Assembly (NCBI GenBank): GCA_958296285.1
Contig: OY282459.1
Location: 1,282,762-1,346,761, forward strand
Length of the DNA stretch: 64,000 bases
Direction of reading: 5' to 3'
Source of the DNA: an uncultured Alphaproteobacteria bacterium
GTDB taxonomy: Bacteria > Pseudomonadota > Alphaproteobacteria > JAPOUT01 > G958296285
The notes beneath the pieces were generated by a model. The model was not told the origin of the DNA, made no database searches, and was given only the letters and a program-made list of their open reading frames with translations. Positions 3,695 through 31,922 of this stretch are shown in pieces. The position numbers and the translations under genes were made by a program. Numbering within the stretch: the stretch's first letter is position 1; each line of letters begins with the position of its first letter.

Positions 3695-4590
3695 GTCTCG
3701 CGGCAGAAAGAGAACCTCTGAGAAAGCCCGCATGGATTCGCGCGCCCATTCCTTCAGGCAAAATCTACCATCAGACGCGCGCGCTGATGCGGGAACTCAA
3801 TCTGGCGACTGTCTGCGAGGAGGCGGCTTGCCCGAATATCGGGACATGCTGGAAAAGCGGACATGCGACAATCATGATTCTCGGAGAAATCTGCACCCGC
3901 GCCTGCGCCTTCTGCAATGTTCAGACCGGGAAGCCTCACGCGCCGGATCCGTTGGAGCCTCAGCGCGTGGCGGCGGCGCTGCGGCGTCTGCGTCTGCGGC
4001 ATCTTGTTATCACGTCTGTGGATCGGGATGATCTCGCCGATGGAGGCGCGGCGCATTGGGCGAAGGTTATCGGCGCGGCGCGGGCGGAATCGCCATCCAC
4101 GGTCATTGAGGCGCTGACCCCCGATTTTCGCAATAAGGGCGATGCGATAGAGCTCGTTCTGAAAACGCGTCCTGATGTTTTCAACCACAATTTGGAGACT
4201 GTGCCGCGTCTTTATGCGCGCATTCGTCCGGGGGCGCGATATTTTCATTCTCTGCGGCTTCTGCAGAGGGCGAAGGAGGCGAATCCGCGGCTTTTCACGA
4301 AGTCGGGGATCATGGTCGGTTTGGGCGAAGCCAAAGAGGAAGTCCTGCAACTGATGGACGATTTGCGCTCGGCGTCCGTGGATTTTCTGACGATCGGGCA
4401 GTATTTGCGTCCGACAAAAAATCACGCGCCTGTGGAGCGTTATGTTTCGCCTGACGAGTTCGCCTCTTACGCGACAATCGCTCGCGCGAAGGGCTTTTTG
4501 ATGGTCTCGTCCAGCCCTCTGACGCGCTCTTCCTATCACGCGGCCGAGGATTTCGCGGCTCTGAAGAAGAGGCGCGATGCCCAAGATTGA
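3691..4590 (+). CDS. lipA: lipoyl synthase
   Basis: Two Cys clusters: [13 protein letters not shown] and the radical-SAM [10 protein letters not shown]. Confidence 0.95.
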
Positions 4591-5026
4591 CGTCCGCCGC
4601 CGCGTTCCGCGTCCCGCCAAGAAGATTTTCGCGCTGGTCGCCGATATTGAATCCTACCCCGAATTTCTGCCGGGCTGCGCGCGGGCGAGGCTTTTTGATC
4701 GCAAGGAGAAGAATCCGCGCGCCGAGCTTGTTTTCGCGTCCAAACGGCTGATGCTGATTGGCTTGCCGGGCGAGATCGCTTTCACGAGCGCCGTCTCGCT
4801 GAACCCCGAAGCGCTGACGATAGAAGCGCGGCAGATAGAAGGACTCTTTGAGAGTCTCACCTGCATCTGGCGATTCAAGCGGATTTCCAAAACCTCCTGC
4901 GATGTGAATTGCGCGCTGCGCTTCGCCTTCCGCGAAACATGGCTGCATCTCGCCGTGACGCCTCTGTTGAAAATCGCGATCTGGCAGACCATCGCCGCTT
5001 TTGAGGCGCGCGCGCTGAAGGACTAA
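4577..5026 (+). CDS. SRPBCC-fold protein (RatA / COQ10-like cyclase-dehydrase family)
   Basis: 149 aa with [14 protein letters not shown], typical of the polyketide-cyclase/RatA family. This family commonly follows lipA in alphaproteobacteria. Confidence 0.7.
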
Positions 5027-5523
5027 CGGGCTTTATCCAAAATCTTATGCAGAAGCGCGAAACCGGCGATGACGGTTTCGGCGCGAACCTCGGCGCGTCC
5101 TTTGTTTGGAAAGCGGCAGAGTTCATTCAAGGTCAGGCTTTTCGCGGCGGCGGCGATATGCACCAAACCCGGCGGATGGGTCTCGCTTCCCCCGGGGCCT
5201 GCCACGCCTGTCACGGCAAGGGCGACATCCACCCCTGCCGCGCGCAGCGCGCCCTCCGCCATGGCGCGCGCGACTTCCTCGCTCACCGCGCCATGCTCTT
5301 GAAGCAGGTTTTTTGGGACGCTGAGAAATTTCATCTTCGCTCTGTTGGAATAGGTGGAGAAGCCGCAGTCAAAAACGCGGGAGGATCCGGGAATATCGGT
5401 CAGAGCCGCGCTGATAAGACCGCCCGTGCAGGATTCGGCTGTCGCGAGTCTCAGACCCGCCTCCTCCATGCGTTTGAGAATCTCGCGCGCTTGTCCTTCG
5501 GTTTCTCGCGGCAGAGCGATCAT
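5023..5523 (-). CDS. CinA-family C-terminal domain protein (nicotinamide-nucleotide amidohydrolase PncC-like)
   Basis: TAESCTGGLISAALTDIPGSSRVFDCGFSTYSNRAK and VTGVAGPGG motifs. Confidence 0.8.
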   Translation of the reverse strand: MIALPRETEGQAREILKRMEEAGLRLATAESCTGGLISAALTDIPGSSRVFDCGFSTYSNRAKMKFLSVPKNLLQEHGAVSEEVARAMAEGALRAAGVDVALAVTGVAGPGGSETHPPGLVHIAAAAKSLTLNELCRFPNKGRAEVRAETVIAGFALLHKILDKAR

Positions 5524-6338: not shown

Positions 6339-8231
6339 ATGCTGGATCGCCTCAGACGCGCCACCGCCCATTGGATGGCGCGCATTCTGATCGGATTGTT
6401 GGCGCTGAGTTTCGCCTTTTGGGGAGTCGGCGATCTTGTCGCGCCGTCTCGTGATCCGGCAATCGCCGAGGTCGGGGACGCCGTCATTCCGCAGACTGTC
6501 TTCCAGCGCTCGCTAAACATCCTCCGCGAAAATCTGCGACAGCAGGGGCGCGCCCTCGCTTTTGACGAAATCCGCCAACTCGGACTGGATCGGCAGGTTC
6601 TGAACCTGCTGACTCGTCAAGAAGCGCTGTCGCTCGGGGCGGCGGCGCTGGGTCTGGACATTTCAGACAGGCGAATCGCCGAGGAAATCCGCGATGATCC
6701 CGCCTTCCAAGGACCTTTCGGCGGATTTGATCGGCAGACCTTCCGCGTGATTCTCGCCGAAGCGGGCTTGAGCGAGCAGCGATTCGCCGAAGAGCGCCGC
6801 AAAGTGCATCTGCGCCGCCAACTCGCCGCGACTGTCCTCGCCTCGCCCCCCGCCTCCGATATTCTCGCCCGCGCGCTCATCAAGCACAGTTTGGAAAAGA
6901 GGATTTTGGAATATGCCCTCCTCCCGATCTCTCTCGCGCCGAAGCCAAAGAGCCCAAATGACGAAACGCTCAAAAAATTCCTAACCCGCGAGCCTTCTCT
7001 CTTCATTCGCCCTGAGCGGCGCGACATTCTTTTGTTGGAGCTGAAGCCGGAGCATTTTTTCTCGTCTCTCGCCGTCTCCGAAGACGAAATCCGCGCCGAT
7101 TACGACGAGCGGCGCATGAGTTTCCGAACCCCTGAAAAGCGCGAAGTAGAGCAAATCATCTTCGCCTCGCGCGATGAAGCCGATGCCGCCCATGCCCGCC
7201 TCAAGAAGGGCGTCTCTTTCGCCGCGATCGCCGGCGAGAAGGGTTTGTCGGAGGAAGATCGGAATCTGGGGCTTCTCTCTGAGCGGGAGTTTTTGTCGCC
7301 CTCTTTGGCGGAAGCGGCTTTCGCTCTCAAAAAGGGCGAAGTGAGCGCTGTCGTGGAGGGGCCTTTGGGGCCGGTTCTGCTGCGAGTTGCCAAAATCGCG
7401 CGAGGCGAGGAGCGAAGCCTCGCTTCCGTCCGCGATCGCGTCAGGAGAGACATTCTGCGCCGCAAATCCGCCGGCGAGATGGAGACCATGCGAAATATCG
7501 TGGAAGACGCGCTGGCAGGGGGCGCGTCTTTGCGCGAAGCGGCGTCTGATCATTCGCTGCCGATCTCGGAACTGAAGGGCGTCTCCGCCGATGGAACAAG
7601 CGCGAAAGGCGCGAAACTGCCCGAGAGGGAGGGGCTGCTTGCCGCCGCCTTCGCCGCCGCGGAACATGAAGAGAGCGCCGCGCGAGAAATGGAAGAGGGC
7701 GGATATTTTTGGCTGGAAGTGGAAAAAATCCATCCCTCGCGCATTCCGTCTTTTGACGAGATTAGGGACGAAGCGCGGAAAATCTGGCGGAAGGAAACGC
7801 GGCGTCTCGCTCTCATTCGGCTCGCGGCGGATCTTGCCGAGCGCGGAAATGGGGGCGAAGATTTGCGCGATCTTCTCAAGAAATATGACCGCGCGCCGTT
7901 GAAGACGCCCGAAATTGGTCGTTTTTTCCGAAGCGATGTTTTTTCGGCGGAGCTTGTGGAGGCGGCTTTCGCAAGACCCGAAGGTCGTTTTGTCGCCGGC
8001 TCTGCCGAGATCGGCGACAGCGTGGTTCTTGTTCGGACGGCGAAGATCGTCAAGCCCTCCCCTTCCCGCGAAGAGGAGAGCGCTTTTAGAGACGCGCTTG
8101 GCGCGCGCTTGGCGAATGAGTTTTTGGAGCAATATGTCGTTTTTCTTTTGGAGCGTTATGGCGTTGTCGTTCACGGCGATGTTTTGGAGAGCGCGGTTCT
8201 GTCTGGCGGCGGCGGCTTGCTCGCGCCATGA
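6339..8231 (+). CDS. ppiD: periplasmic chaperone / peptidyl-prolyl isomerase PpiD-like (SurA N-terminal domain family)
   Basis: MLDRLRRATAHWMARILIGLLALSFAFWGV N-terminal anchor, about 630 aa, located upstream of trpE. Start trimmed from 6168 to avoid overlap with tpiA. Confidence 0.75.
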   Translation: MLDRLRRATAHWMARILIGLLALSFAFWGVGDLVAPSRDPAIAEVGDAVIPQTVFQRSLNILRENLRQQGRALAFDEIRQLGLDRQVLNLLTRQEALSLGAAALGLDISDRRIAEEIRDDPAFQGPFGGFDRQTFRVILAEAGLSEQRFAEERRKVHLRRQLAATVLASPPASDILARALIKHSLEKRILEYALLPISLAPKPKSPNDETLKKFLTREPSLFIRPERRDILLLELKPEHFFSSLAVSEDEIRADYDERRMSFRTPEKREVEQIIFASRDEADAAHARLKKGVSFAAIAGEKGLSEEDRNLGLLSEREFLSPSLAEAAFALKKGEVSAVVEGPLGPVLLRVAKIARGEERSLASVRDRVRRDILRRKSAGEMETMRNIVEDALAGGASLREAASDHSLPISELKGVSADGTSAKGAKLPEREGLLAAAFAAAEHEESAAREMEEGGYFWLEVEKIHPSRIPSFDEIRDEARKIWRKETRRLALIRLAADLAERGNGGEDLRDLLKKYDRAPLKTPEIGRFFRSDVFSAELVEAAFARPEGRFVAGSAEIGDSVVLVRTAKIVKPSPSREEESAFRDALGARLANEFLEQYVVFLLERYGVVVHGDVLESAVLSGGGGLLAP

Positions 8232-9772
8232 GCGCCCCTTTCCCTGACGCCTCCGCTTTCCGCGACATTCACAATGCAGGCAAGACGCAGATCGTTCGGC
8301 TGACGCTGCCTGCCGATTTGGAAACGCCTGTCGCCGCGATGATCAAATTGGCGGCGGGGAAGCGCGGCGCGTTCCTTTTTGAATCGGTGGAGGGCGGAGA
8401 GGCTCGCGGACGCTATTCCGTCATCGGCTTCGCGCCGGACGCCATTTGGCGATCTTACGGCGCGAGATGCGAGATCAATCGGCAGGCGGCGCGAGACCCT
8501 GACGCTTTTGAGATTTTGAAAGAGCCGCCTTTGGACGCGCTTCGCCGTTTCATCGCGGAGTCGCGTTTTGATCTGCCTGACGGTTTGCCGTCTTTGTCGG
8601 CGGGTTTGTTCGGCTATATGGGCTACGACATGGCGCGTCATGCCGAGCGTTTCGGGTCTCCGCCGCCTGACGCGATTGGCATTCCGGACAGCGTTTTCGC
8701 GCGTCCGTCTCGTCTTGTGGTTTTTGATTCGGTCAGCGACACGATGATTTGCATTGTTCGCTCGTCTCCGCGCCGGGGGCGCTCGGCTGACGAGGCTTAT
8801 GACGAAGCCTGTCGCGCTTTGCGCGAGATGCGGACGGCTTTGCAGAGGCCTCTGATGCCGAAGGAGCGCGGCGAGGATAGCCAGAGCGATGAAGGCGATG
8901 AAAGCGGCGGGGGCGGCGCGTCTTCGTCTGTTTCCATGCCGGTGCCGCGGTCCAACATGCAGCGCGCGCTTTATTTGGAGAAGGTTCGGCGCGTTAAGGA
9001 GTATATTTTCGCTGGCGACATTTTTCAGGCTGTTTTGAGTCAGCGTTTTTCGGCGTCTTTTTCGCTTTCGCCCATGACGCTGTATCGGTCTTTGCGGCGG
9101 ATAAATCCGTCTCCTTATCTTTATTATTTGGATTTTGGGGATTTTTCGGTTGTTGGCTCAAGTCCTGAGATTTTGGTTCGGCTGCGCGAGGGCGTGGTGA
9201 CGATTCGTCCGATTGCCGGGACTCGTCCGCGCGGGGGGTCGGCGGCGGATGATCTTCGCATTGGCGAGGAGTTGTTGTCGGATCCGAAGGAGCGCGCCGA
9301 GCATTTGATGTTGTTGGATTTGGGTCGGAATGATGTTGGGAGGGTATCGGAGATTGGTTCTGTTCGCGTGACGGAGCGTTTCGCGCTGCAGCGGACGTCT
9401 CATCTCATTCACATTGTTTCCAATGTTGAGGGTGTTTTGCGGCGCGGTTTGGAGGCTTTGGACGCTTTGATGGCGGGTTTTCCTGCTGGGACGGTTTCGG
9501 GCGCGCCGAAGATTCGGGCGATGGAGATTATTGATGAGTTGGAGGATGAGAAGCGGAGTTTATATGCGGGGGCGGTGGGGTATTTTTCGGCGAATGGGGA
9601 TATGGACAGTTGCATTGCCTTGCGGACGGCGTTGGTTAAGGATGGGGTGATGTATGTTCAGGCGGGGGGTGGGATTGTGGCGGATTCGGAGCCTGCTTAT
9701 GAGTATCGGGAGTCTGTGAAGAAGGCGGAGGTTTTGTTTCGGGCTGCTGAGGCTGTTGGAGGCTCCCGTTGA
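8228..9772 (+). CDS. trpE: anthranilate synthase component I
   Basis: LFESVEGGE, GDIFQAVLSQRF, PYLYYLDFGDF, GTVSGAPKIRAMEIIDELE. Start overlaps the ppiD stop. The last 4 codons and the stop lie inside the repeat element. Confidence 0.95.
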   Translation: MSAPFPDASAFRDIHNAGKTQIVRLTLPADLETPVAAMIKLAAGKRGAFLFESVEGGEARGRYSVIGFAPDAIWRSYGARCEINRQAARDPDAFEILKEPPLDALRRFIAESRFDLPDGLPSLSAGLFGYMGYDMARHAERFGSPPPDAIGIPDSVFARPSRLVVFDSVSDTMICIVRSSPRRGRSADEAYDEACRALREMRTALQRPLMPKERGEDSQSDEGDESGGGGASSSVSMPVPRSNMQRALYLEKVRRVKEYIFAGDIFQAVLSQRFSASFSLSPMTLYRSLRRINPSPYLYYLDFGDFSVVGSSPEILVRLREGVVTIRPIAGTRPRGGSAADDLRIGEELLSDPKERAEHLMLLDLGRNDVGRVSEIGSVRVTERFALQRTSHLIHIVSNVEGVLRRGLEALDALMAGFPAGTVSGAPKIRAMEIIDELEDEKRSLYAGAVGYFSANGDMDSCIALRTALVKDGVMYVQAGGGIVADSEPAYEYRESVKKAEVLFRAAEAVGGSR

Positions 9773-10066
9773 GGGGGGTTTGGGGGGGCGGCGAGCCGCC
9801 GCGGGCATCTTTTTCATAGAGAGGCATTTTGGCTTTACCCCAGGGGAACTAATGCATAGAAGCTTGAGGTGAAGGGGGGGTTGGGGGGCTTGCCCCCCAA
9901 GAAAAACCAAGCGGGCGCAAGCCCGCTACGGGCGGCGGGCTTCTCGCGCACTTGCGCTACGCGCTGCGTGCGCTTCGTTGCGCCACGCCCGCCGACCTTT
10001 TCGGGGGGGATTCCCCCCGACCCCCCCTTTCTCAAGGGGGGCTAGCCCCCCTTGACCCCCCTCAAG
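9758..10066. repeat. Mosaic G/C-tract palindromic intergenic element, copy A (modules Y, Z-prime, X)
   Basis: Y 9758-9879 matches the reverse complement of 17449-17562. X 9998-10066 matches 17395-17454 in direct orientation and contains a perfect G6-CTAG-C6 palindrome at 10036-10051. Z-prime 9909-9994 holds nested hairpins (agcgggc-gcaa-gcccgct; ggcgggc...gcccgcc). Confidence 0.9.
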
Positions 10067-10084
10067 AGGTGCTATAGTCGCCCC

Positions 10085-10672
10085 ATGATCCTCCTCATAG
10101 ACAACTACGACTCCTTCACATACAACCTCGTCCATTTCCTCGGCGAACTGGGCGCCAAAACCAACGTCCAACGAAACAACGCCACATCAGCATCAAAAGC
10201 CCTCGCCAAAAAACCCCAAGCCATCATCATCTCCCCAGGACCCAAAACCCCAAACGAAGCAGGAATATCCCTAAATCTCATAAAAACCGCCGCCAAACAC
10301 AATATCCCAACCCTCGGCGTCTGCCTCGGACACCAAACCATCGGACAAGCCTTCGGCGCGAAAATCACCCGCGCCATCCCCACCCACGGCAAAATCAGCG
10401 CCATCAACCACAACAGCAAAGGAGTCTTCCAAAAACTCCCCTCACCCCTCCAAGCCACCCGATACCACTCCCTCATCATAGAAGAAAATACGCTGCCCCA
10501 ATGCCTCGCCATCACCGCGAGAACATCAGACGGAACAATCATGGGAATCCAACATAAAACCCTCAACGCCCACGGAGTCCAATTCCACCCCGAAAGCATT
10601 GAAACCGAACACGGACACAAAATCCTCCAAAACTTCCTCAAACTCGCAGGAATAAAAGGAATAAAAAAATGA
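10085..10672 (+). CDS. trpG: anthranilate synthase component II (glutamine amidotransferase, TrpG/PabA)
   Basis: MILLIDNYDSFTYNLVHFLGELG, GVCLGHQ, GVQFHPES. Start trimmed to the ATG at 10085. Confidence 0.9.
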   Translation: MILLIDNYDSFTYNLVHFLGELGAKTNVQRNNATSASKALAKKPQAIIISPGPKTPNEAGISLNLIKTAAKHNIPTLGVCLGHQTIGQAFGAKITRAIPTHGKISAINHNSKGVFQKLPSPLQATRYHSLIIEENTLPQCLAITARTSDGTIMGIQHKTLNAHGVQFHPESIETEHGHKILQNFLKLAGIKGIKK

Positions 10673-11694
10673 GCGAAAACCTCAAAAAAACCCTCGCGCT
10701 TATCGCGTCAGGCGAAAAACTCGCGCCCGCCCAAGCCGAAACCGCCTTCCAACATCTCATGTCCGGCGAAGCCAAAGACGCCGAAATCGGCGCGCTCCTC
10801 ATGGGACTCCATATGCGCGGCGAAACAACAGACGAAATCGCCGCCGCCGCCAAAATCATGCGCGCCGCCGCCACGCCCGTCCAAGCCCCGAAAAACGCCA
10901 TAGACCTCTGCGGAACAGGCGGCGATATGAAAGGAAGCCTCAATATCTCCACCGCCGCGTCTTTTATAGTCGCCGCCTGCGGCGTCCCGGTGGCGAAGCA
11001 CGGAAACCGCGCGCTCTCGTCTCAGTCAGGCGCGGCGGACGTCCTTTTGGCGCTCGGCGCTGAAACCGCCCTCCCGCCCCAGACCATCGCCCAATGCATC
11101 AAGGAAACGGGCATCGGCTTCCTCTTCGCGCCCTCGCACCACCCCGCCGCGAGACATGTCGCGCCGGCGCGCGCGGCGCTCGGCATCAGGACAATCTTCA
11201 ACCTCCTCGGACCTCTCTGCAATCCCGCCTTCGTCAAACGGCAACTGATCGGAGTCTTCGCGCCCGAATGGCTGACGCCCCTCGCCGAAGTGCTGCGCGA
11301 TTTGGGAAGCGAGCGCGTTTGGATCGTTCATGGCTCGGACGGGATGGACGAAATCACCCTTTCCGGCGAAACCCGCGCCGCCGAACTCAAAAACGGCAAA
11401 GTCCGCCCCTTCACGATCACGCCCGAAGAAGCAGGACTTCCTCGCGCTCCATCGGAGAGTCTCAAAGGCGGGACGCCTCAACAGAACGCGGCGGCTCTGC
11501 GGAGACTGTTGGACAGCGAAAGCGAAAACGGGGCTTATAGAGACGCTGCCGTTCTGAACGCGGCGGCGGCGCTCGTCATCGCGGAGAAGGCAGGAGATTT
11601 GCGCGAAGGCGCGGCGCAAGCCTCCGAATCTCTTTCCAGCGGACGCGCCGCCGACACCTTTCACGCCTTTCGCAATTTCACGAAGAAGCCATGA
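10669..11694 (+). CDS. trpD: anthranilate phosphoribosyltransferase
   Basis: DLCGTGGDMKGSLNISTAASFIVAACGVPVAKHGNRALSS. Confidence 0.95.
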   Translation: MSENLKKTLALIASGEKLAPAQAETAFQHLMSGEAKDAEIGALLMGLHMRGETTDEIAAAAKIMRAAATPVQAPKNAIDLCGTGGDMKGSLNISTAASFIVAACGVPVAKHGNRALSSQSGAADVLLALGAETALPPQTIAQCIKETGIGFLFAPSHHPAARHVAPARAALGIRTIFNLLGPLCNPAFVKRQLIGVFAPEWLTPLAEVLRDLGSERVWIVHGSDGMDEITLSGETRAAELKNGKVRPFTITPEEAGLPRAPSESLKGGTPQQNAAALRRLLDSESENGAYRDAAVLNAAAALVIAEKAGDLREGAAQASESLSSGRAADTFHAFRNFTKKP

Positions 11695-12503: not shown

Positions 12504-12960
12504 CGAGCGCGGGCGGGTCTCTATGGCGGATGTCTCGGCGAAGAAGACGACCGAGCGCCGCGCCGAAGCCGAAGCCGTCATCATTATGCGCCCCGAAACG
12601 CTGCGCGCTCTTTTAGAAGGCGAAGGCAAGAAAGGCGACGCCTTCGCCGCCGCGAGAATCGGCGGCATCATGGCGGCGAAAAAAACCGCCGATCTCATTC
12701 CGCTCTGCCATCCCCTGCCGCTTGATCATATCGCTCTCCGCTTTGAGACAGACGAGAAAAAAGGACGAATCCGCATCGCCGCCGCCGTCAAAACGACAGC
12801 CCGAACAGGCGCGGAGATGGAAGCGCTGACCGCCGCCGCCATCGCCTCCCTGACGCTCTACGACATGGCGAAAAGCGAGGAGAAAGGGATACGGATAGAA
12901 AGTCTGCGTCTTCTTTCCAAAAGCGGCGGCAAATCCAAAGATTTTAACGCCGATGGATAA
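12481..12960 (+). CDS. moaC: cyclic pyranopterin monophosphate synthase
   Basis: MADVSAKKTTERRA and TADLIPLCHPLPLDHI. Confidence 0.9.
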   Translation: MKKTSHLDERGRVSMADVSAKKTTERRAEAEAVIIMRPETLRALLEGEGKKGDAFAAARIGGIMAAKKTADLIPLCHPLPLDHIALRFETDEKKGRIRIAAAVKTTARTGAEMEALTAAAIASLTLYDMAKSEEKGIRIESLRLLSKSGGKSKDFNADG

Positions 12961-14161
12961 TCTCATCTCTGTGGAAGAGGCTCTGCGCCTGATGGAGGCG
13001 GCGGCGCGTCCTCTGCCTAAAACATCCGCGCCATTAAGCGAGGCGGTCGGGCGCGTTTTGGCGAAAGAGATCAAGGCGCGTCTGACGCATCCGCCCTTCG
13101 CCGTCTCGGCGATGGACGGCTTCGCGCTCCATGCCGAAGATGCGCGGACTATCCCGGCGCGTCTGAACCTCATCGGAGAGTCGGCGGCGGGGAAGCCTTA
13201 TCAAGGCGAGGTCTCTCGCGGCGAAGCGGTAAAAATCCAAACAGGCGCGAGCATCCCCTCCCCTCTTGACGCCATCGCGCCCAAAGAGATAACGAAAACC
13301 GAAGGCGAGCATGTCAAGATTCTGAAACCTGTTCTGATCAAGCGGTTCATTCGAGAGGCGGGGCAGGATTTTTCTCGCCGGGAGGTTCTTCTTCCGAAAG
13401 GGCATCTGTTGGACGCGGCGGCGATCGGTCTGGCGGCGGCGGGCGGACATGACGCGCTTATCGTTCCGAGAAAGCCGCGCGTTTCGGTTTTGGCGTCAGG
13501 GAGCGAGCTTGTCGCGGCAGGCGTCTCGCCCAAGCGCGGGCAGATCGTCTCGTCCAACTCTTACGTTTTGACGGCGCTCTTGAATCAGATGAACGCGGAA
13601 GTTGAAGATTTAGGGATTGCGTCCGATTCTCTCGCCGATTTGGAAAGCGCGCTCGCCAAAAGCGCCGCGCCCGATCTTCTGATCACTATAGGGGGCGTTT
13701 CGGTCGGCGAGCATGACCTCATTCTGCCCGCTCTTCGCAAGCGGGGTTTTGAGACAATTCTGCATGGCGTGGCAATGCGTCCGGGAAAACCTTTTCTTTT
13801 CGGACGTTTGGGCAAGGCTTTTGTCATGGGTCTTCCCGGGAATCCTGTCTCGGCGCTTGTCTGCGCGCATCTTTTCATAAGACCTTTCCTGCGCGCGCTC
13901 GGCGGACATGACGCGCCCTATCAAGACAAAAGCGAATCCGCGATCCTTGACAAAAGCATCCCCGCCAATGGCGCGAGGCAGTCTTATCTGCGGGGACGTT
14001 TAAGAAAAGACGGAGACGCGCTTCACGTCCTCCCCTTCGCGCGACAAGACAGCGCGCTCCTTCGGGATATGGCTTATGCAGACGCGCTCATTTCGCGCCC
14101 TCCGTCAAGCCCGTCGGCCGAAGCGGGCGATGAAACTCGGATCTTGCGCCTCGCTTTCTAG
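12953..14161 (+). CDS. moeA: molybdopterin molybdenumtransferase
   Basis: PPFAVSAMDGFAL, SGSELV, ITIGGVSVGEHD, LPGNPVSALV. Confidence 0.9.
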   Translation: MDNLISVEEALRLMEAAARPLPKTSAPLSEAVGRVLAKEIKARLTHPPFAVSAMDGFALHAEDARTIPARLNLIGESAAGKPYQGEVSRGEAVKIQTGASIPSPLDAIAPKEITKTEGEHVKILKPVLIKRFIREAGQDFSRREVLLPKGHLLDAAAIGLAAAGGHDALIVPRKPRVSVLASGSELVAAGVSPKRGQIVSSNSYVLTALLNQMNAEVEDLGIASDSLADLESALAKSAAPDLLITIGGVSVGEHDLILPALRKRGFETILHGVAMRPGKPFLFGRLGKAFVMGLPGNPVSALVCAHLFIRPFLRALGGHDAPYQDKSESAILDKSIPANGARQSYLRGRLRKDGDALHVLPFARQDSALLRDMAYADALISRPPSSPSAEAGDETRILRLAF

Positions 14162-14607
14162 AGCAGCCCCGCCTCCGTCAAAGCCGCGCGCAGCTCTTCG
14201 GGCATATCGTCCGACAAGCCCGCTCTTTCCAAATCGGGGGGCGCGTCTTTCGCTTCCAAATAGCGCCAGCCCTGAAAAGCGCGGCGCGGGAAGGGCTTCG
14301 TCAGAACGAGTTCCAAATCCAAATCCAAAAGACAGCGCTTCACGCCGTCTCGCCCCTTATGCGGACGAATATCCAGAATCCTCTGCCGCGCCGCGATGAC
14401 GCCCCGAAAAACCCAATAAAGAGAGCCGTTCCGCGGCGAGCCGCTCGCCAAAATCTCTTCGCGCCGCTTCGGCGTCATGCGCGTGATGTGGAAGAGTTCG
14501 GGCGACTGCCCTCTCGCTTTTTGAGAGGCGATCTCGTCTCGCTGCCATCGCGCGAGTTCGGCGGGCGACCCCACGCCCACGCACAATTTGACCAAATGCA
14601 GCGTCAT
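14158..14607 (-). CDS. DUF1489 family protein
   Basis: MTLHLVKLCVGVGSPAELARWQ N-terminus typical of DUF1489. Start trimmed from 14667 to the ATG at 14607, which removes the overlap with mgtE. Confidence 0.6.
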   Translation of the reverse strand: MTLHLVKLCVGVGSPAELARWQRDEIASQKARGQSPELFHITRMTPKRREEILASGSPRNGSLYWVFRGVIAARQRILDIRPHKGRDGVKRCLLDLDLELVLTKPFPRRAFQGWRYLEAKDAPPDLERAGLSDDMPEELRAALTEAGLL

Positions 14608-14614
14608 AAAGACC

Positions 14615-15985
14615 TCACAGCAGAAAATACGCCGCCAAGCCCAAAAAGGCGAAAAAGCCGACAACATCCGTGACTGTCGTCAAAAACACGCCGGACGAAA
14701 TGGCGGGATCGGCGCCGATTTTCTCTAATGCCAGAGGGATCAGAATTCCAGCGAGCGCGGCGGTCAGCATATTGACAATCACGGCGGCGAAAAGAACCAT
14801 CCCAAGCGCGAAATTCTTAAACCACGCGCCTCCAATCACCCCCAAAATCACGGCAAGCGATACGCCATTCAGAACTCCCACGCCGATCTCGCGCATGATG
14901 ATCCTGCGCTGATTCGCCGCGACAAGCTCGCGAGTCGCCAGCGCGCGCACGGCGACGGTGAGAGTCTGAATGCCCGCCACGCCTCCCATGGACGCCACGA
15001 TCGGCATCAGAACCGCCAGCGCCACCATTCCGGCGATCGCGTCCTCAAAAAGCGCGATGACGACAGACGCCAAAATCGCCGTCATCAGATTGACGAAGAG
15101 CCATAAAAAGCGTCTGCGCGCCGATTCCAGCACCGTGCCGGAGAGTCTGTCGCGTCCGACTCCGCCGAGCCTCTTGATGTCTTCGCTCGCTTCTTCGGTG
15201 ATGACTTCCACGATGTCGTCCGCCGTGATCATGCCCATCAGCATGCCGTTCTGATCCACGACGGGCGCGCTGACCAGATTATATCGGCGGAAGGCTTCGG
15301 CGACATCTTCGCGGTCTTTATGGGCTTCTATCTTGAGAGGCTCGCCCTGCATCAGGCTGTTCAGAGACTCTTCGCGCTTGGCGCGGACGAGGCGGCTCGT
15401 CAAGACGCTTCCGATGAGTCTCCATGTCGGGCTGACGATATAGATTTCGTAGAAATCCTTCGGGAGTTCGGCGCTTTGGCGCAGATGGTCTATGACGCGT
15501 CCTACGCTCCAGAAGGCGGGGACGGCGACCAGATCGCGCTGCATGAGGCGTCCTGCGCTGTCTATCGGGTAATCCAGTCCGCGCTCAATATCGGAGCGCG
15601 CGCGGAGGGGAACGCGATCTAGGATATTTCTTCGGCGGGTTTCGTCCAGCCCTTCCACGAGGGCGAGCGCGTCATCGGAGGCGATTGTGGCGAGGGCGGG
15701 CGCGAGTTTTTCGGGGGCGAGGAGCGGGAGGATATCGGCGAGGACGCCTTCTTCCAGTTCCGAGAGGATTTCGGGCTTGAGTTCGTCATTGAGGAGGGTG
15801 ATGAGTTTGTGTCGTTCTTCGGGTTTGAGGAGTTCTAGGATTTCGGCGGCGTCTGCGGCGTGGAGTTCGTGGATTTGGTTTTGGAGTTTCGCGCGATGTT
15901 CCGCGGTGATGGCTTCGCGCGTTTCTTGGAGGATATTTGGGACGGGCGTTTCGGTGGGTTCCGTGGTGTGGGGGGGATTAGACAT
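14615..15985 (-). CDS. mgtE: magnesium transporter MgtE
   Basis: N-domain, two CBS-like segments and a C-terminal TM domain (GGVAGIQTLTVAVRALA, DPAISSGVFLTTVTDVVGFF). Confidence 0.9.
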   Translation of the reverse strand: MSNPPHTTEPTETPVPNILQETREAITAEHRAKLQNQIHELHAADAAEILELLKPEERHKLITLLNDELKPEILSELEEGVLADILPLLAPEKLAPALATIASDDALALVEGLDETRRRNILDRVPLRARSDIERGLDYPIDSAGRLMQRDLVAVPAFWSVGRVIDHLRQSAELPKDFYEIYIVSPTWRLIGSVLTSRLVRAKREESLNSLMQGEPLKIEAHKDREDVAEAFRRYNLVSAPVVDQNGMLMGMITADDIVEVITEEASEDIKRLGGVGRDRLSGTVLESARRRFLWLFVNLMTAILASVVIALFEDAIAGMVALAVLMPIVASMGGVAGIQTLTVAVRALATRELVAANQRRIIMREIGVGVLNGVSLAVILGVIGGAWFKNFALGMVLFAAVIVNMLTAALAGILIPLALEKIGADPAISSGVFLTTVTDVVGFFAFLGLAAYFLL

Positions 15986-16033
15986 ACGCCGCGCCTTTTT
16001 TGCTTTTTTGTCTGTGGCGTATATTTAGCCTAT

Positions 16034-16076
16034 GGGGGCTGATTTATAAAAGCCCCCGACTCTTTTGGATCGGGGG
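16034..16076 (-). terminator. Three-arm alternative hairpin (terminator-like) between the DUF1640-like stop and the mgtE start
   Basis: Minus-sense RNA reads cccccga-N10-tcggggg followed by cuuuuau. The same G-tract can instead pair as gggggcu-N10-agccccc. Confidence 0.35.
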
Positions 16077-16096
16077 CGAGTTTGTGAGATTTTGTT

Positions 16097-16426
16097 CTAG
16101 GATGCTAATTTGAGAAGGATTGCGCCTGTCAGAGTGAAATTCGCTATCATGAAGGTGATGGTGACTCCGAACATCCATTTTAGCAGGCGCATGTCGGCTT
16201 GGACTTCTCCGAAGCGTTTTTCCATGTCTATTCTGAGTTCTCCGATCTGCGCGTTCATATCGGCGCGGAGTTCTCCGACCCGTTCTTCCACGTTCCGAAG
16301 CCGTTCTTCTATGTTCCGAAGCCGTTGCTCATCGCGGTTGGCTTCCAGCGCTTCTATAGCGGCGGTGGCTTTGTGATCGCTGACTTTCGCTTCTTTGAGG
16401 GCATCATAGACTGCGACGAGGCTCAT
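16097..16426 (-). CDS. coiled-coil membrane-anchored protein (DUF1640-like)
   Basis: 109 aa with heptad-like repeats (RLRNIEERLRNVEERVGELRADMNAQIGELRIDMEKRFGEVQADMR), then LKWMFGVTITFMIANFTLTGAILL as a C-terminal TM. GC lower than neighbours. Confidence 0.5.
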   Translation of the reverse strand: MSLVAVYDALKEAKVSDHKATAAIEALEANRDEQRLRNIEERLRNVEERVGELRADMNAQIGELRIDMEKRFGEVQADMRLLKWMFGVTITFMIANFTLTGAILLKLAS

Positions 16427-16496
16427 GGTTTATCTCCTTATGGTTGTGTTTTTGTAGCATTTTTGGTTCTTCTGCCGCAATCTTTAGAAGAAAGAA

Positions 16497-16657
16497 AAGG
16501 GGGGTGTGGGGGGTCGGAGACCCCCCGCGAAAAAGGGGGGATCGGGGGGATTCCCCCCCGAAAAGCGCGTGGGTGGGGTGGGGAAAAGAGCATTTGCGAG
16601 CGAAGCGTAAGCGTAGCGAGCAAATGCGACCCCACCCACGCGCCCCCTGCTCGCAGG
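16497..16657. repeat. Mosaic palindromic element, copy B (G/C-tract hairpins plus Z hairpin)
   Basis: 16543-16657 matches the reverse complement of 17289-17410. Z hairpin 16565-16643 has outer arms gcgcgtgggtgggg / ccccacccacgcgc and inner arms gcatttgc / gcaaatgc. Confidence 0.9.
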
Positions 16658-16672
16658 AGCTACTGATTCAGA

Positions 16673-17131
16673 TCAAAGATCGCCAAGCCTGCGCCGAAAC
16701 ACTTCATCAAACTTTTCTAATCTCTCCTTGAACCAAGCATATTGCGCGCATCTGTGGTTCATATTTTCCCAATCAGCTTCCTCTTCCCAGCTTTGGGTAA
16801 TAGATGGGAATCCCCATTGCAGTGGTGGAGGTGTGCCAATTTCCCTCTCAATGGCTTCTTTATCTGCATGCAGTTGGTTAAAACATTCCTTAGCGTAAAG
16901 CATGTCGGTGTCGGGGACAGGAAAACTTTTGCCATAGATAGAAAACCTAACAGCTACCTTGCGCGGCGGCGTCTTATAAAAACACGCCCATATGCGAAAG
17001 CCTGCTCTCCCCATAGAGAATCCTAGAGTGCTGCCAGACGACCGACAACGCCCGCGCCCAATATGTGAGTCAGACGCTCTGAGGCACTTAAGCAAACCTT
17101 GCCAATAGAGGCGGTGTTCTTCTTTAGACAT
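16673..17131 (-). CDS. hypothetical protein, DUF4268-like
   Basis: 152 aa, about 49% GC in a counted 100-nt window. Pattern LYWQGLL ... VRFSIYG ... FNQLHADKEAIEREIG..LQW ... W..FKERLEKF resembles DUF4268 from memory. No search was possible. Confidence 0.45.
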   Translation of the reverse strand: MSKEEHRLYWQGLLKCLRASDSHIGRGRCRSSGSTLGFSMGRAGFRIWACFYKTPPRKVAVRFSIYGKSFPVPDTDMLYAKECFNQLHADKEAIEREIGTPPPLQWGFPSITQSWEEEADWENMNHRCAQYAWFKERLEKFDEVFRRRLGDL

Positions 17132-17149
17132 TTGTCATTTCCGCAAAAA

Positions 17150-17236
17150 TGGTGCGGTCGAGAAGACTCGAACTTCCACGGGGTTGCCCCCACAGCGCCC
17201 TCAACGCTGCGCGTCTACCTATTCCGCCACGACCGC
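17150..17236 (-). tRNA. tRNA-Leu (anticodon GAG), CCA encoded
   Basis: Reverse complement GCGGTCGTGGCGGAATAGGTAGACGCGCAGCGTTGAGGGCGCTGTGGGGGCAACCCCGTGGAAGTTCGAGTCTTCTCGACCGCACCA. 7-bp acceptor stem, anticodon loop TTGAGGG, long variable arm, GTTCGAGTC T-loop. Confidence 0.9.
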
Positions 17237-17288
17237 ATCCAAAACACAATTAGCAGAAATTAACCAACCCCTCAACCTCGCTAGAAAT

Positions 17289-17562
17289 CTTGCGAACAGG
17301 GGGCGCGTGGGTGGGGTCGCATTTGCTCGCTCGCTACGCCACGAGTGGCTTCTCTTCGCTCGCAAATGCTTTTTTCCCCACCCCACCCACGCGCTTTCGG
17401 GGGGATTCCCCCGAACCCCCTTTCTCAAGGGGGGCTAGCCCCCCTTGACCCCCCTTCACCTCAAGCTTCTATGAATTAGTTCCCCCTGGGGCAAACCCAA
17501 AATGCCTCTCTATGAAAAAAATGCCCGCGGCGGCTCGCCGCCCCCCCTTAACGGGAGCCTCC
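17289..17562. repeat. Mosaic palindromic element, copy C (modules Z, X, Y in inverted order)
   Basis: Z 17303-17394, X 17395-17454 (G6-CTAG-C6 at 17429-17444), Y 17449-17562. Y overlaps the last 4 codons and the stop of cysH. Confidence 0.9.
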
Positions 17563-18312
17563 ATGAATCCCGCACTCCTCCTTCTCTAAACCACCCCATC
17601 TACCATCACGATACGAACCCCCCGAACCAACAGAAGCCGTGCAAGGAACACACCCTATAGACAAATACCCACGCTTCACCAACGGATGAACAACCAAACT
17701 ATGCCGCTCAACATAAGAACCAAGAGCCTCCTGATCCCAATCCACAAGAGGATTAATGGAAAACCGCGCCACGCTCCCCGCCATCTCCCGAAACTCTATC
17801 GCCTCCAAAATCGCCCGACTCGCCGTCTGAAAACGCTTCCGACCCGTGATCACCGCCTCAAATCCCCCCAACGCCCGCCGCAACGGCAAAACCTTCCGAA
17901 AATGACAGCAAGCGTCAGGATCCTCGCTCCAAAGAGAACCATCCGAATCCAACCGCGCCCGATCCACAGGATCAGGACCAATGGAACGCAAATCCGTCAA
18001 ACCCAGCCGATCCTGCAATAAATCACGATAGCGAAGAGTCTCCGGAAACAACTTCCCCGTATTCAGAAAAATCACGGGAACAGACGGATCAATCTCCGAA
18101 ACCATATGCAGCAAAACCACCGACTCCGAACCAAAAGACGAAACCACCGCAATCCTGCCCGGAAAAACCTCCTTGATCATCGCCTCAAGAAGAGGCTTGC
18201 CGGACAGCGCATATTCACGCCGCAACATCTCAAGACGCGCCGCCGCCTCGGCAGGAACCTCCCCCGAAGCGCGAGGCATCGGAATCTCGGCGCGATTCTC
18301 TAAACCAGCCAT
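17548..18312 (-). CDS. cysH: phosphoadenosine-phosphosulfate (PAPS/APS) reductase
   Basis: SFGSESVVLLHMV, DPDACCHFRKVLPL, C-terminal EKEECGIH motif. Confidence 0.9.
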   Translation of the reverse strand: MAGLENRAEIPMPRASGEVPAEAAARLEMLRREYALSGKPLLEAMIKEVFPGRIAVVSSFGSESVVLLHMVSEIDPSVPVIFLNTGKLFPETLRYRDLLQDRLGLTDLRSIGPDPVDRARLDSDGSLWSEDPDACCHFRKVLPLRRALGGFEAVITGRKRFQTASRAILEAIEFREMAGSVARFSINPLVDWDQEALGSYVERHSLVVHPLVKRGYLSIGCVPCTASVGSGGSYRDGRWGGLEKEECGIHGGSR

Positions 18313-18845
18313 TTTTGATCCTCCATCATCGCGCGGCTTTTCTCACGGACAGCGCTCGGCGCTAATCCCTGATCGCGCCACCGATCCCGCGCCGCCGACA
18401 GCGCCAACAAACGATCGCGCCATTCCGCCCCATAATGGCGAGAGAGATCATCACGAAGCATCCGCGCCGCCGAAGGCGATCTGCCTCCGGTGGAAACGGC
18501 GAAAAGCAAATCCCCTCGCCGCAAAATGGACGGAACATGAAAATCGCACAAAGCCGGAATGTCTTCTGTGTTGACAAGAGCGCCGACAGCGCGCGCGCGA
18601 GCCGCGAGCGGACGGGCTTCCTCTTCCGAAAATCCCGCGATGAACAGAATCGCGCCGCGCATCTCCTCATCTTTCGGAAGACGCCGCCGAATCGGAAAAC
18701 TCATCAGAGCCTCACCGCGCGGCGCGTAGATTTCCGCCTCCATCTTTGCCGCTCCGATGAGCCGACAGCGTTTTAACAGCGGCTCGCCCTCGCCAATGAG
18801 GAGAATCTTTTTCCGATTCGGGTTAAGGACGATCGGCAGCATCAT
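18300..18845 (-). CDS. precorrin-2 dehydrogenase / sirohydrochlorin ferrochelatase-like (siroheme synthase N-terminal domain)
   Basis: KILLIGEGEPLLKR Rossmann-like start and LVNTEDIPALCDFHVPSILRRGDLLFAVSTGGRSPSAARMLRDDL, matching the CysG-N/SirC signature. Overlaps the cysH start. Confidence 0.7.
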   Translation of the reverse strand: MMLPIVLNPNRKKILLIGEGEPLLKRCRLIGAAKMEAEIYAPRGEALMSFPIRRRLPKDEEMRGAILFIAGFSEEEARPLAARARAVGALVNTEDIPALCDFHVPSILRRGDLLFAVSTGGRSPSAARMLRDDLSRHYGAEWRDRLLALSAARDRWRDQGLAPSAVREKSRAMMEDQKWLV

Positions 18846-18916
18846 GCCTATAATATCGGACTTGCGCGGACGAAAAGCAAGCGCCCCCCTGCCTCCCCTG
18901 CCCTATAGACAATGCG

Positions 18917-19531
18917 ATGATCCGTTGGCAAATCTCATCCGATCCCGTCTCTTATGGAGAATCTGTCGGCGCGATGGAAAGCCATGTCGGCGAAATGATC
19001 GCCGGGCGCGAGGGCGAGAAAATCTGGCTTCTTCAGCATCCGCCCCTCTACACGATCGGCGCGAGAACTCAATCTTCCGACATCCTCCATAAAAAATTCC
19101 CGATCCACAAAACGAGTCGCGGCGGTCTCGCCACCTATCACGGGCCTGGGCAGAGGGTCGTCTATCTGATGCTCAATCTCAAAGAAAGAGGCTTGAAAGC
19201 GCGCCCCTTCGTCCAAAAATTGGAGGACTGGCTGATCCTCGCCCTCGCCCGCCTCGGCGCGAAGGGAGAGCGCCGACATGACCGCATCGGAATATGGATC
19301 GCCGACAAAAGCCGCGAAGACAAAATCGCCGCCATCGGCATCCGCGTCAGACGCGGAATCAGTTTTCACGGCGTCAGCGTCAATGTGAATCCCGATCTCT
19401 CCCATTATGACGGCATCGTGCCTTGCGGAATAGCGCGGCATGGCGTCACGAGCCTCCACGCGCTCGGAATCCCCGCCTCCATGCGGGAGGTGGATCAAGC
19501 GCTCCAAGATTCCTTCGCGGACATCTTTTAG
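18917..19531 (+). CDS. lipB: lipoyl(octanoyl) transferase
   Basis: IWLLQHPPLYTIG, RGGLATYHGPGQ, KIAAIGIRVRRGISFHG. Confidence 0.9.
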   Translation: MIRWQISSDPVSYGESVGAMESHVGEMIAGREGEKIWLLQHPPLYTIGARTQSSDILHKKFPIHKTSRGGLATYHGPGQRVVYLMLNLKERGLKARPFVQKLEDWLILALARLGAKGERRHDRIGIWIADKSREDKIAAIGIRVRRGISFHGVSVNVNPDLSHYDGIVPCGIARHGVTSLHALGIPASMREVDQALQDSFADIF

Positions 19532-31623: not shown

Positions 31624-31922
31624 TTGGCGTCCCCTTCCACGATTCTGACCATATGAGCGACTTTGCGAATCTGTCCGCGCATTTCGGGGCAGTCGGCGAC
31701 CGCGCGGCGCTTTCCGATTCTGCCCAAGCCCAGCGCGCGGAGCGTTCTGCGCTGCGTTTGAGGACGCCGTATCGCGCTGGCATATTGCTCCACGACAAGA
31801 TGCGTCTTTTTTTCAGGCGGCTTTGTCTTGCTCGCGGGTTTTTTCACGGGCTTTTTCGCGGCGGGCTTTTTCACGACCGCTTTTTTCTTCGCGGCGGGCG
31901 TTTTTTTCTTCTCGGCGCTCAT
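31620..31922 (-). CDS. rpmD: 50S ribosomal protein L30 with about 40-aa Lys-rich N-terminal extension
   Basis: Core [34 protein letters not shown], preceded by [39 protein letters not shown]. Confidence 0.9.

Follow-up and report, generated by a model that had tools for sequence, protein, structure and literature searches.

The window analyzed here (the whole 64,000-nt stretch of contig OY282459.1) comes from the small genome of an uncultured alphaproteobacterium. Two of its intergenic regions, between trpE and trpG (locus 1) and between mgtE and cysH (locus 2), carry copies of the same palindromic repeat element of ~300 bp. On each side of the element ~1 kb of core-gene DNA has been rewritten at its silent sites, such that the + strand is rich in G+T to the left of the element and rich in C+A to the right. 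Roughly 5-10% of the sequence examined is affected (about 5 kb of the 64-kb window). Pfam searches identify the products of the genes concerned as MgtE, PAPS reductase (CysH), TrpE, TrpG, TrpD and a PpiD-like protein. At locus 1 the element is complete, and at locus 2 it is split, with orf152 and a tRNA-Leu gene between its halves and orf109 between the left half and mgtE (Table 1).

Table 1. Features of the two skewed loci, in window coordinates; G+T is the fraction on the + strand.
Feature	Position	Strand	G+T	Description
Left skew arm, locus 1	7900-9772			+ strand G+T-rich; ppiD 3' end and trpE
Complete repeat element, locus 1	9762-10084			between trpE and trpG
Right skew arm, locus 1	10085-11400			+ strand C+A-rich; trpG and trpD 5' part
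mgtE	14615-15985	minus	0.68 (5' 128 codons)	Pfam MgtE_N, CBS, MgtE
Left skew arm, locus 2	15250-15985		0.55 (15251-15600), 0.68 (15601-15985)	+ strand G+T-rich, increasing toward element; covers 5' part of mgtE
Short intergenic spacer	15986-16096		0.67	terminator-like G/C hairpins downstream of orf109
orf109	16097-16426	minus	0.57	coiled coil, C-terminal hydrophobic tail; moderate skew in the sense of the left arm
Left half of repeat element, locus 2	16427-16672
orf152	16673-17131	minus	0.47	Pfam DUF4268 (1.3e-7); unskewed; GC 0.48
tRNA-Leu(GAG)	17150-17236	minus		ARAGORN; Rfam 50 bits
Right half of repeat element, locus 2	17288-17547			long hairpin, two G/C hairpins, terminal module
Right skew arm, locus 2	17548-18600			+ strand C+A-rich; all of cysH, fading into cysG-like 3' end
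cysH (PAPS reductase)	17548-18312	minus	0.32	Pfam PAPS_reduct (4.5e-40)
cysG-like gene			0.44

The + strand base counts given for locus 2 in a preliminary description of this DNA were exact on recount: A11 C13 G40 T36 in 15781-15880, A31 C37 G16 T16 in 17701-17800, and A14 C31 G23 T32 in 16201-16300. Among 100-nt windows of the 64 kb, the first of these (G+T 0.76) falls in the top 0.08% and the second (G+T 0.32) in the bottom 2.1%; windows outside both loci have a mean G+T of 0.486 with a standard deviation (sd) of 0.064. When 300-nt windows are used (mean 0.487, sd 0.059 across the 64 kb), runs with an absolute z-score above 3 occur only at the two loci, where G+T rises to 0.70 in 8900-9900 and falls to 0.25 in 10100-10600 at locus 1, and rises to 0.71 in 15600-16100 and falls to 0.29 in 17500-17900 at locus 2. 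The proposal that mgtE/cysH is a second mirror-image flip anchored on the element therefore holds: the two loci are the most skewed of the window, and further copies of the element, described below, are concordant. The background GC skew of the window is -0.07. One other G+T-rich stretch, 31700-32200, has no repeat and is the complement of Lys/Ala-rich tails of ribosomal proteins; we set it aside as ordinary.

The skew is close to saturation at third codon positions. On the coding strand, the G+T fraction at position 3 is 0.83-0.93 in cysH and 0.83-0.92 in the 3' half of trpE, and on the other side of the elements it is 0.17-0.22 in the first 120 codons of mgtE and 0.00-0.12 in trpG (successive bins 0.05, 0.05, 0.12, 0.00). 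The remaining genes of the window lie around 50% (about 0.34-0.78 per 80 codons). Counted in bins of 60 codons beginning at the mgtE start codon, the values are 0.17, 0.22, 0.32, 0.35 and 0.37, and along trpE they climb through 0.57, 0.60, 0.72, 0.67, 0.85, 0.83, 0.87, 0.92 and 0.89. From trpG (0.05) the gradient crosses the gene border into trpD (0.18, 0.28, 0.33, 0.35, 0.47), and that of cysH continues into the cysG-like gene (0.73, 0.57, 0.67). By these counts the skew grades with distance, regardless of gene borders.

Four-fold degenerate sites tell the same story: their composition is A7 C42 G39 T13 (in %) in the background, A1 C12 G48 T38 in the G+T arms and A20 C69 G10 T1 in the C+A arms. 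When 24 arm segments were pooled, each oriented by the strand that we propose below to be exposed, these sites were G56 T30 C11 A3 (n = 2569). The GC content of the arms stays close to background. Despite the near-saturated third positions the proteins encoded in the arms are intact, with their Pfam domains preserved, and their amino acids have been drawn along with the skew: T/P/N/K/Q/H make up 39% of TrpG and G/V/F/L/W/C make up 35% of CysH, compared with 27% and 28% in the orthologues of an unskewed relative. The arm composition is one of mutation pressure filtered by selection, and not of selection for composition. A gene call based on GC content at third positions (GC3) overlooked cysH and chose an antisense open reading frame (ORF) at 17686-18021 (+) in its place.

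The same repeat is present at both loci: 10023-10062 matches 17416-17455 at 100%, and 9782-9846 matches 17483-17547 in inverted orientation at 95%. The complete element is a non-coding quasi-palindrome of 300-330 bp; copies span 290-450 bp and contain no ORF. Its terminal inverted repeats (26-54 nt at 74-85%) have the form GCTCCCGTTGA-GGGGGG-N3-4-GGGGGGCTAGCCCCCC, the terminal repeat of the element copies reading GCTCCCGTTRAGGGGGG..., and inside them are two long hairpins of 70-80 nt, with stems such as GTCGGCGGGC or CGCGTGGGTGGG, and a central palindrome, CCCCCTGCTCGCAAGAGCTCTTGCGAGCAGGGGG. The outer module consists of a terminator-like hairpin followed by a T-run. Folded as single-stranded DNA (ssDNA), the whole element has a predicted energy of -102.8 kcal/mol, compared with -67 ± 4 for shuffles (z = -8.7), and single modules give z from -3 to -6. 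At locus 1 the terminal inverted repeats are 9762-9789 and 10045-10072, and the cumulative G+T maximum that marks the flip lies at ~9892. The left half at locus 2 contains a G6/C6 hairpin pair (16499-16560), a long hairpin (16565-16643) and half of the central palindrome (16644-16661); it forms inverted repeats with 17288-17404 (94-95%), and its DNA folds have energies of -20.9 kcal/mol (z -3.3) and -29.9 kcal/mol (z -6.3). The G/C hairpins of the right half include the palindrome TCAAGGGGGGCTAGCCCCCCTTGA, and the folds of this half have z -4.4 and -4.6. The spacer next to mgtE folds at -18.1 kcal/mol (z = -3.8).

The arms start exactly at the outer ends of the terminal inverted repeats, and at the inner end of each arm G-runs sit on the strand that would be exposed. 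Reading frames of abutting genes run into the terminal repeat (GCTCCCGTTGA/TTAA), whose outer 11 nt supply their final 3-4 residues and stop codon. Thus CysH ends in ...IHGGSR*, encoded by GGAGGCTCCCGTTAA followed by GGGGGGG (window 17548-17562), and TrpE ends in ...AVGGSR* inside the terminal repeat (window 9757-9772). At related loci, labelled L and introduced below, the repeat encodes the C-termini GRSR*, RRSR*, PSSR*, TRSS* and LGSG* (L016 2546-2560, 2849-2863, 7623-7637 and 7962-7976; L011 6621-6635), and the orthologues in an element-free relative have other C-termini. Because these terminal nucleotides are read as last codons plus stop, we conclude that the repeat has replaced the native C-termini of many core proteins.

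The element has the characteristics of a miniature inverted-repeat transposable element (MITE): it is small, non-coding and multicopy (at least 10 sites in ~160 kb of related sequence) and has terminal inverted repeats. MITE-like repeats of bacteria include the Correia elements of Neisseria, the enterobacterial ERIC/IRU and REP/BIME, RIME of Rhizobium and RPE of Rickettsia. Like them, the element is an intergenic mosaic of hairpins whose ends can enter reading frames and supply a stop codon; unlike them, it has no Rfam family and was not found outside its lineage in scans of contig collections. Against Rfam, at gathering and permissive thresholds, no family matched (best 15-23 bits against cut-offs of 35-168). 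The pattern TCAAGGGGGN{0,3}CTAGN{0,3}CCCCCTTGA across genome contigs and the pattern GAACTAATKCATAGAAGCT across metagenome contigs returned only unrelated chance hairpins without skew, and a 10-mer search for the stems of the long hairpins lacked specificity in DNA this rich in GC. The flanking sequences TTGA...TCAA and TAAA...TTTA form inverted pairs and so belong to the terminal repeat; a direct repeat beyond GCTCCCGTTGA is not evident in a comparison made without an empty site in a close strain. No transposase or nuclease cognate to the element was seen within the window or the fetched loci. None of the families listed above is known to us to carry kilobase skew arms in its flanking genes.

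To place the two loci in context we turned to relatives. A homology search with CysH gave one close relative at 98% amino-acid identity, the next best being only 66% identical; the range of CysH homologues suggests that the bacterium is a deep-branching alphaproteobacterium, whose nearest named relatives are Parvibaculum, Tepidicaulis and Micropepsaceae, at about 60-66%. The close relative (L005; ENA ERZ19489113, contig s55.ptg000057c, 1,723,605 bp) is a sister strain whose DNA is 96-99% identical across window positions 8091-28306, and it shows the identical arm pattern at both loci. The 66% relative (L006) shares the gene order (cysG-like, cysH, tRNA-Leu, mgtE; trpC-D-G-E and ppiD), with short spacers (234 bp and 45 bp) that lack clusters of G/C runs; it is unskewed, G+T being 0.44-0.60 throughout. 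As L006 keeps the synteny but has neither element nor skew, we conclude that the skew is a derived feature of the element-bearing lineage. Between the two strains, the arms are no more diverged than their surroundings, if anything less, and divergence is patchy; this lack of extra divergence suggests that the arms are older than the strain split and near equilibrium. Raised arm divergence was also considered as a sign of ongoing hypermutation, and was discarded since the arms are not more diverged and the measure is uninformative at saturated equilibrium.

As the preliminary description had itself cautioned, two loci cannot separate a process symmetric about the element from one that is polar with transcription, because the pattern of G+T left and C+A right is invariant under reverse complementation, and locus 2 is locus 1 reverse-complemented. 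We therefore examined six further regions of related strains (L010-L013, L015-L017), which were reached via paralogues of orf109 that adjoin the repeats; an element was defined operationally as at least four runs of G5+ or C5+. All six hold more copies, with arms of identical polarity, so that element-associated skew is also found elsewhere. In 15 of the 16 repeat clusters with usable flanks the left flank had the higher G+T, as predicted (mean difference 0.16), compared with a left-right difference of 0.00 ± 0.052 at 1036 control positions (0.3% above 0.2). Reaching clusters through the orf109 family biases toward finding elements, not toward a polarity. A meta-profile of 16 arms in 200-nt bins gave deviations of 0.21, 0.17, 0.14, 0.10, 0.05, 0.04 and 0.03, reaching ~0 by 2 kb, and left and right arms were alike in amplitude and length.

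The decisive geometry proposed earlier, an element between convergent genes, keeps G+T on the left and C+A on the right. In L016, G+T is 0.71 and then 0.28 where the element separates an acyltransferase gene (+) from the gene for a 609-aa protein (-), and 0.72 and then 0.31 where it separates PDH (+) from YmdB (-); in L011 the + strand is likewise GT-rich on the side of PolyA_pol (+) and CA-rich on the side of S58 (-). Arms that contain genes of both orientations agree: a 2-kb left arm in L017 with a + gene and a - gene has + strand position-3 G+T of 0.80-0.93 in both, and a right arm in L011 with a - gene and bioB (+) is CA-rich on the + strand in both. Genes of 1-1.4 kb that lie between two elements have a C+A-rich 5' half and a G+T-rich 3' half; bioB (L011 8754-9764) and a DAHP synthase gene (L015 17175-18551) are such cases, with opposite codon usage within one protein. 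On either side of an element, then, it is the strand pointing 5'→3' at the element that is rich in G+T, irrespective of gene orientation, which bears out the earlier claim that the skew tracks position relative to the element and not the strand of the genes. A rule stated in terms of gene ends (3' ends GT-rich and 5' ends CA-rich on the coding strand) is mathematically identical to the positional rule in every geometry; geometry alone thus cannot separate the two, and the plausibility of the mechanisms must.

Nor does the pattern resemble a switch at a replication origin or terminus. Two flips lie within 8 kb of the window and decay within ~2 kb, and L011, L015 and L016 show up to four flips within 20 kb, each back to background within ~2 kb. 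Background skews differ among the loci, and the arms are saturated and too few to relate their strength to replication direction.

The nature of the mutations was approached by polarising single-nucleotide non-synonymous differences with the unskewed L006 as proxy ancestor. In the G+T arms, A>G outnumbered G>A by 27 to 7 and C>T outnumbered T>C by 11 to 4; in the C+A arms there were 24 G>A versus 6 A>G and 15 T>C versus 0 C>T. The corresponding background counts were 105 A>G versus 72 G>A and 27 C>T versus 41 T>C. Asymmetry was weaker among transversions (in the G+T arms, C>G 10:5 and A>T 7:3). By these counts, the pressure on the strand that leads 5'→3' to the element consists mostly of C→T and A→G. 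Left arms accordingly show C>T and A>G on the + strand, and right arms G>A and T>C, the polarity of bidirectional resection; the presence of both C>T and A>G, with monotonic decay over distance, is what exposure of single strands predicts. Four-fold composition alone proved ambiguous between transitions and transversions, as the sites are saturated and the two surviving bases re-equilibrate, and a strict ancestral reconstruction for CysH with 119 homologues yielded only 3 informative sites. C is depleted in the arms in all contexts. The residual fraction C/(C+T) is 0.49 where the preceding base is G, 0.21 where it is C, 0.09 for T and 0.08 for A, compared with 0.90, 0.68-0.86, 0.69-0.84 and 0.63 in the background. 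No sharp deaminase-like motif, such as the TC of APOBEC3A, appears in the arms; residual C depends mildly on the 5' base, with the same ordering as in the background.

The DNA between the arms of locus 2 has a more varied history than the preliminary description supposed, which took the block 16097-17131 to be unskewed and probably inserted later, or else part of the element. Absence of skew and later insertion are supported for orf152, with position-3 G+T of 0.50-0.58, but not for orf109, whose moderate skew (coding-strand position-3 G+T 0.37/0.24; GC 0.52) has the sense of the mgtE arm. In the sister strain the cysH-mgtE spacer contains tRNA-Leu, a glutathione S-transferase (GST) gene and two orf109-like genes; orf152 is absent, and the unskewed GST gene takes its place. 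Strains that are 96-99% identical thus carry the same element with different cargo (the DUF4268 gene at 16673-17131 in the window versus the GST gene at L005 11191-11865). Being absent from the sister strain and unskewed, orf152 is recent and strain-specific cargo. The tRNA-Leu gene, by contrast, is ancestral to the spacer and not inserted, because a copy 97.8% identical lies between cysH and mgtE in the element-free L006. Later insertion applies only in part to orf109, which we read as an older passenger within the left arm. Finally, short cargo between two element halves may also be unskewed since opposing exposures cancel.

No Pfam family matches orf109. Its 36 homologues are almost all in two genomes, of 1.733 and 1.724 Mb, making this a lineage-specific family with ~15 paralogues per genome; the larger of the two encodes an identical protein and is hence the window's own genome. 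Proteins of the family combine a coiled coil with a hydrophobic C-terminal tail and show faint CCDC90-like/DUF1640 matches (L011 10001-10914; L012 10001-10429 and 13385-13705; L015 10001-10432; L016 10001-10714; L017 10001-10441), and an identical protein is encoded on a 1.2-kb scaffold of another metagenome (L014; ENA ERZ23493506, JAHN19-1_SAMN10953135_METAG), whose sample label may point to the habitat of the lineage. Four loci have a member at a distance of 80-120 nt from the element, on its C-run side and often in tandem, and these proteins may be passengers or a functional partner of the element. Between element halves elsewhere we observed restriction-modification genes (N6_N4 methylase plus HinfI-like) and small helix-turn-helix genes, and such cargo sometimes lies beside half of a central palindrome (L011 6884-8640 versus L010 7925-8440; L015 10001-12925). 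Such comparisons mark the elements as hot spots of gene turnover.

What process could have produced the arms? We consider it probable that 3'-ending strands at the element have been recurrently exposed as single strands and have then suffered deamination. The heavy-strand gradient of mitochondria is by common consent attributed to C>T and A>G changes that scale with single-stranded time (PMC8565317, PMC9561281), and because graded C→T plus A→G is the accepted signature of time spent as ssDNA we read the + strand on the left and the - strand on the right as the exposed ones. Each copy of the element would then be a site that leaves the DNA on both sides recurrently single-stranded, the exposed strand on either side being the one that runs 5'→3' toward it. 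Exposed C and A would deaminate, giving C→T and A→G, so that the exposed strand drifts to G+T and its complement to C+A. Silent sites within ~1 kb would come near saturation, purifying selection would keep the proteins working with their composition shifted alike, and recently arrived DNA between or beside repeat halves (orf152, or GST in the sister strain) would not yet be skewed. Three other processes at such a site were rejected as they predict the opposite polarity, with C+A on the left and G+T on the right: strand displacement proceeding outward from a nick, bidirectional initiation as at an origin, and G·T misincorporation into the nascent strand while gaps are filled.

Strand exposure could come about in two ways; the exposure, its chemistry and the initiating event, whether break or gap, are all inferred from composition. 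Our confidence in exposure is divided about evenly between the two, which the present data cannot separate, so that either alone is a tentative proposal. In one, a two-ended break would arise at the element in most generations, by SbcCD-type cleavage of a hairpin or cruciform or by transposase excision of the MITE-like element (nicks would also serve); the flanks would be resected 5'→3', leaving the + strand on the left and the - strand on the right as 3' tails that deaminate, and the sister copy would restore the element. In yeast, bidirectional 5'→3' resection leaves the top strand mutated at C on the left and at G on the right (PMC6786661), a polarity identical to that found here. The arms are equal in amplitude and length and their starting points coincide with the outer ends of the terminal inverted repeats, foreign genes are gained and lost with unusual frequency at these sites, as expected where DNA often breaks (orf152 versus GST, restriction-modification genes, orf109 paralogues), and there is a precedent for palindrome cleavage in E. 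coli, where chromosomal palindromes form hairpins on both template strands that are cut by SbcCD (PMC4245961). On this route, nevertheless, almost no generation could pass without each copy breaking, which is a considerable burden where copies are many. AddAB/RecBCD degrades the DNA beside a break instead of keeping it single-stranded, no transposase or nuclease was seen in the window or the fetched loci, and the cargo between element halves is unskewed.

In the other, the folded element (hairpins, possibly G-quadruplexes from the G6 runs) would block polymerases on both templates at each fork passage, and the template past the block would stay single-stranded until the next priming site and deaminate. 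The polymerase copying the + template moves leftward and would stall at the element, leaving the + template on the left bare as far as the previous Okazaki fragment or repriming site; that copying the - template moves rightward and would leave the - template uncovered on the right. The predicted polarity is the same for either fork direction. The arms, ~1 kb long and tailing off by 2 kb, match the length of Okazaki fragments and the distances of repriming in bacteria. As ssDNA the modules fold very stably, and G-runs lie on the exposed strand at the inner ends of the arms. This route predicts a stronger arm on the lagging template, and the arms look equal, though saturation could mask a difference; it also leaves a 6-kb skew in L017 unexplained, and half elements with the same hairpins flank unskewed cargo, though in short cargo opposing arms would cancel. 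Timing also bears on the choice. Cytosine in ssDNA deaminates at ~1e-10 per second at 37 °C, and by our own estimate saturation of silent sites would need minutes of exposure per generation, which favors an event at almost every replication. Such a frequency comes naturally to a gap, formed once per generation without chromosome breakage, and is possible for a break only if cleavage is very frequent, as has been reported for SbcCD acting on engineered palindromes in E. coli (PMC4245961).

A more active role for the repeat family, with its ends cut or nicked in most generations by a nuclease or transposase acting in trans, or with an ssDNA deaminase recruited, seems to us rather doubtful. If true, every copy would sustain strand-specific hypermutation of essential core genes over ~1 kb to either side of it, acting as a heritable 'kataegis engine' of natural origin that shifts protein composition and marks entry points for foreign genes.

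Explanations that dispense with exposure at the element fare far worse. Transcription might act asymmetrically around an element that serves as terminator or promoter, through damage to the non-template strand, R-loops or transcription-coupled repair, and a polar effect is then expected, with the 3' end of the upstream gene G+T-rich and the 5' end of the downstream gene C+A-rich. The terminator-like hairpin and T-run of the outer module are compatible with this, as is the G+T-rich non-template strand of genes read toward the element. Genes read away from it are, however, equally C+A-rich on the non-template strand (trpG, mgtE, the 5' parts of bioB and DAHP synthase, nuoA, AnmK, ACAD2 and CcmF), so that these eight lack the G+T enrichment of the coding strand that transcription would impose whatever the element. 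Opposite signs would be needed at 5' and 3' ends, where a process acting on physical strands needs only one; the skew runs smoothly across gene and operon borders (trpG-trpD, trpE-ppiD, cysH-cysG-like), and the L017 arm with convergent genes shares one + strand skew. We regard this account as very improbable. Least probable of all is that local mutation is not involved and that the arms reflect foreign or recombined DNA, an assembly artefact, or selection on codon usage or mRNA structure. The locus does hold recently acquired DNA of lower GC, and the patchy divergence between strains is recombination-like, but the recently acquired DNA is exactly the part without skew: of all the sequence here, only orf152 (GC 0.48, strain-specific) looks like a horizontal island. 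The arms lie in syntenic core genes with L006 orthologues and with GC near background, their skew grades with distance across gene borders, and they recur in independent assemblies from other samples. Moreover, the skew is strongest at 4-fold sites and the amino-acid shift goes the wrong way for selection.

Several observations weigh against recurrent exposure and deamination itself. In a host with AddAB/RecBCD, resection should not peak right at the break. The extra loci were found through a gene family that adjoins the repeats and come from sister strains and not from the window's own genome, and the sample of copies is small (about 10 independent sites, one neighboring gene family). Some copies are one-armed or weak (in L013 on the RmuC side, in L015 on the TPR side, and L016 9787-9925); arms are missing or weak on accessory flanks, such as restriction-modification, SIR2, TPR and RmuC sides, which we tentatively attribute to recent acquisition of these flanks. 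The dependence of residual C on the 5' base is not predicted by purely spontaneous chemistry, though its order is that of the background. Spontaneous deamination of adenine is much slower than that of cytosine, and A→G is as strong as C→T here, so an enzyme or another lesion may be involved. Finally, the skew in L017 extends over more than 6 kb, beyond a gap of Okazaki size. This region, from a further strain or species in the same sample with a background GC skew of +0.16, has + strand position-3 G+T of 0.6-0.9 over >6 kb of minus-strand core genes (12700-19140 and 550-5520; sigma factor, GlnE, HU, CcmH and CcmF), peaking at 0.93 beside elements. It may represent a separate, replication-scale skew or much longer arms; a strong replication-scale skew there, if real, would point to weak repair of deaminated bases throughout the lineage.

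The chemistry and the geometry of the arms each have precedents. Clusters of mutations from resection in yeast (PMC6786661) share the strand switch, C on the left and G on the right, the kilobase tracts and 3' tails as targets, but they are single somatic events, induced by added APOBEC or a chemical mutagen and affecting C only; the arms described here are germ-line, accumulated and near-saturated, combine C→T with A→G, are fixed on a repeat in a bacterial chromosome and have been filtered by selection. The vertebrate mitochondrial heavy-strand gradient (PMC8565317, PMC9561281) likewise shows C>T and A>G on the exposed strand, graded with exposure, and third positions extreme in G/T versus A/C in genes that remain functional. 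It differs in being one genome-wide gradient from strand-displacement replication, where we see numerous local gradients that extend for ~1 kb to both sides of a repeat, over a modest background skew. In the GC and TA skew of replicating bacterial chromosomes (reviewed in PMC3269012), G exceeds C and T exceeds A on the strand that is more often single-stranded, as here, but with one switch each at origin and terminus on a megabase scale; the flips reported here have a terminus-like sign, occur several times within 20 kb and decay within 1-2 kb. Palindromes cut by SbcCD in E. coli (PMC4245961, PMC3315005) are also a few hundred bp long, form hairpins at replication and suffer recurrent two-ended breaks repaired from the sister; they are engineered and have no reported compositional footprint, and the present element is known from sequence only. 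Our search of the full-text literature found no report of kilobase, near-saturated, mirror-image skew arms anchored on a bacterial repeat family, so that such arms in bacteria appear to be new.

Three further features of the window lie away from the two loci. An Rfam DUF3800-VI RNA motif above the gathering score (40.6 bits, E = 6e-5) is found at 44873-44932 (-), upstream of a gene with lower GC3 at 44096-44869. A periodic repeat of 15/27 nt at 55964-56144, within the gene at 55422-56330, encodes a Pro/Ala/Gly-rich stretch, and a 1913-aa ORF at 58254-63992 (-) has internal repeats of ~590 nt (62126, 62729, 63320).

Local skew flips of this kind should not be mistaken for origins or termini of replication. 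They mislead gene finders and codon-based methods, and phylogenies of the affected genes are possibly distorted. If exposure at the element is the correct explanation, the arms are a permanent record, at base resolution, of the place, strand and extent of ssDNA around a repeat in an uncultured bacterium, which is otherwise visible only by mapping breaks or ssDNA in model organisms. The length of an arm would correspond to the length of the gap or resection tract, and its strength would report the frequency of the event multiplied by the age of the copy, so that how often palindromes break or stall forks in nature would become addressable from sequence. Small non-coding repeats could in this way reshape the codon usage and amino-acid composition of their neighbors without inserting into genes.

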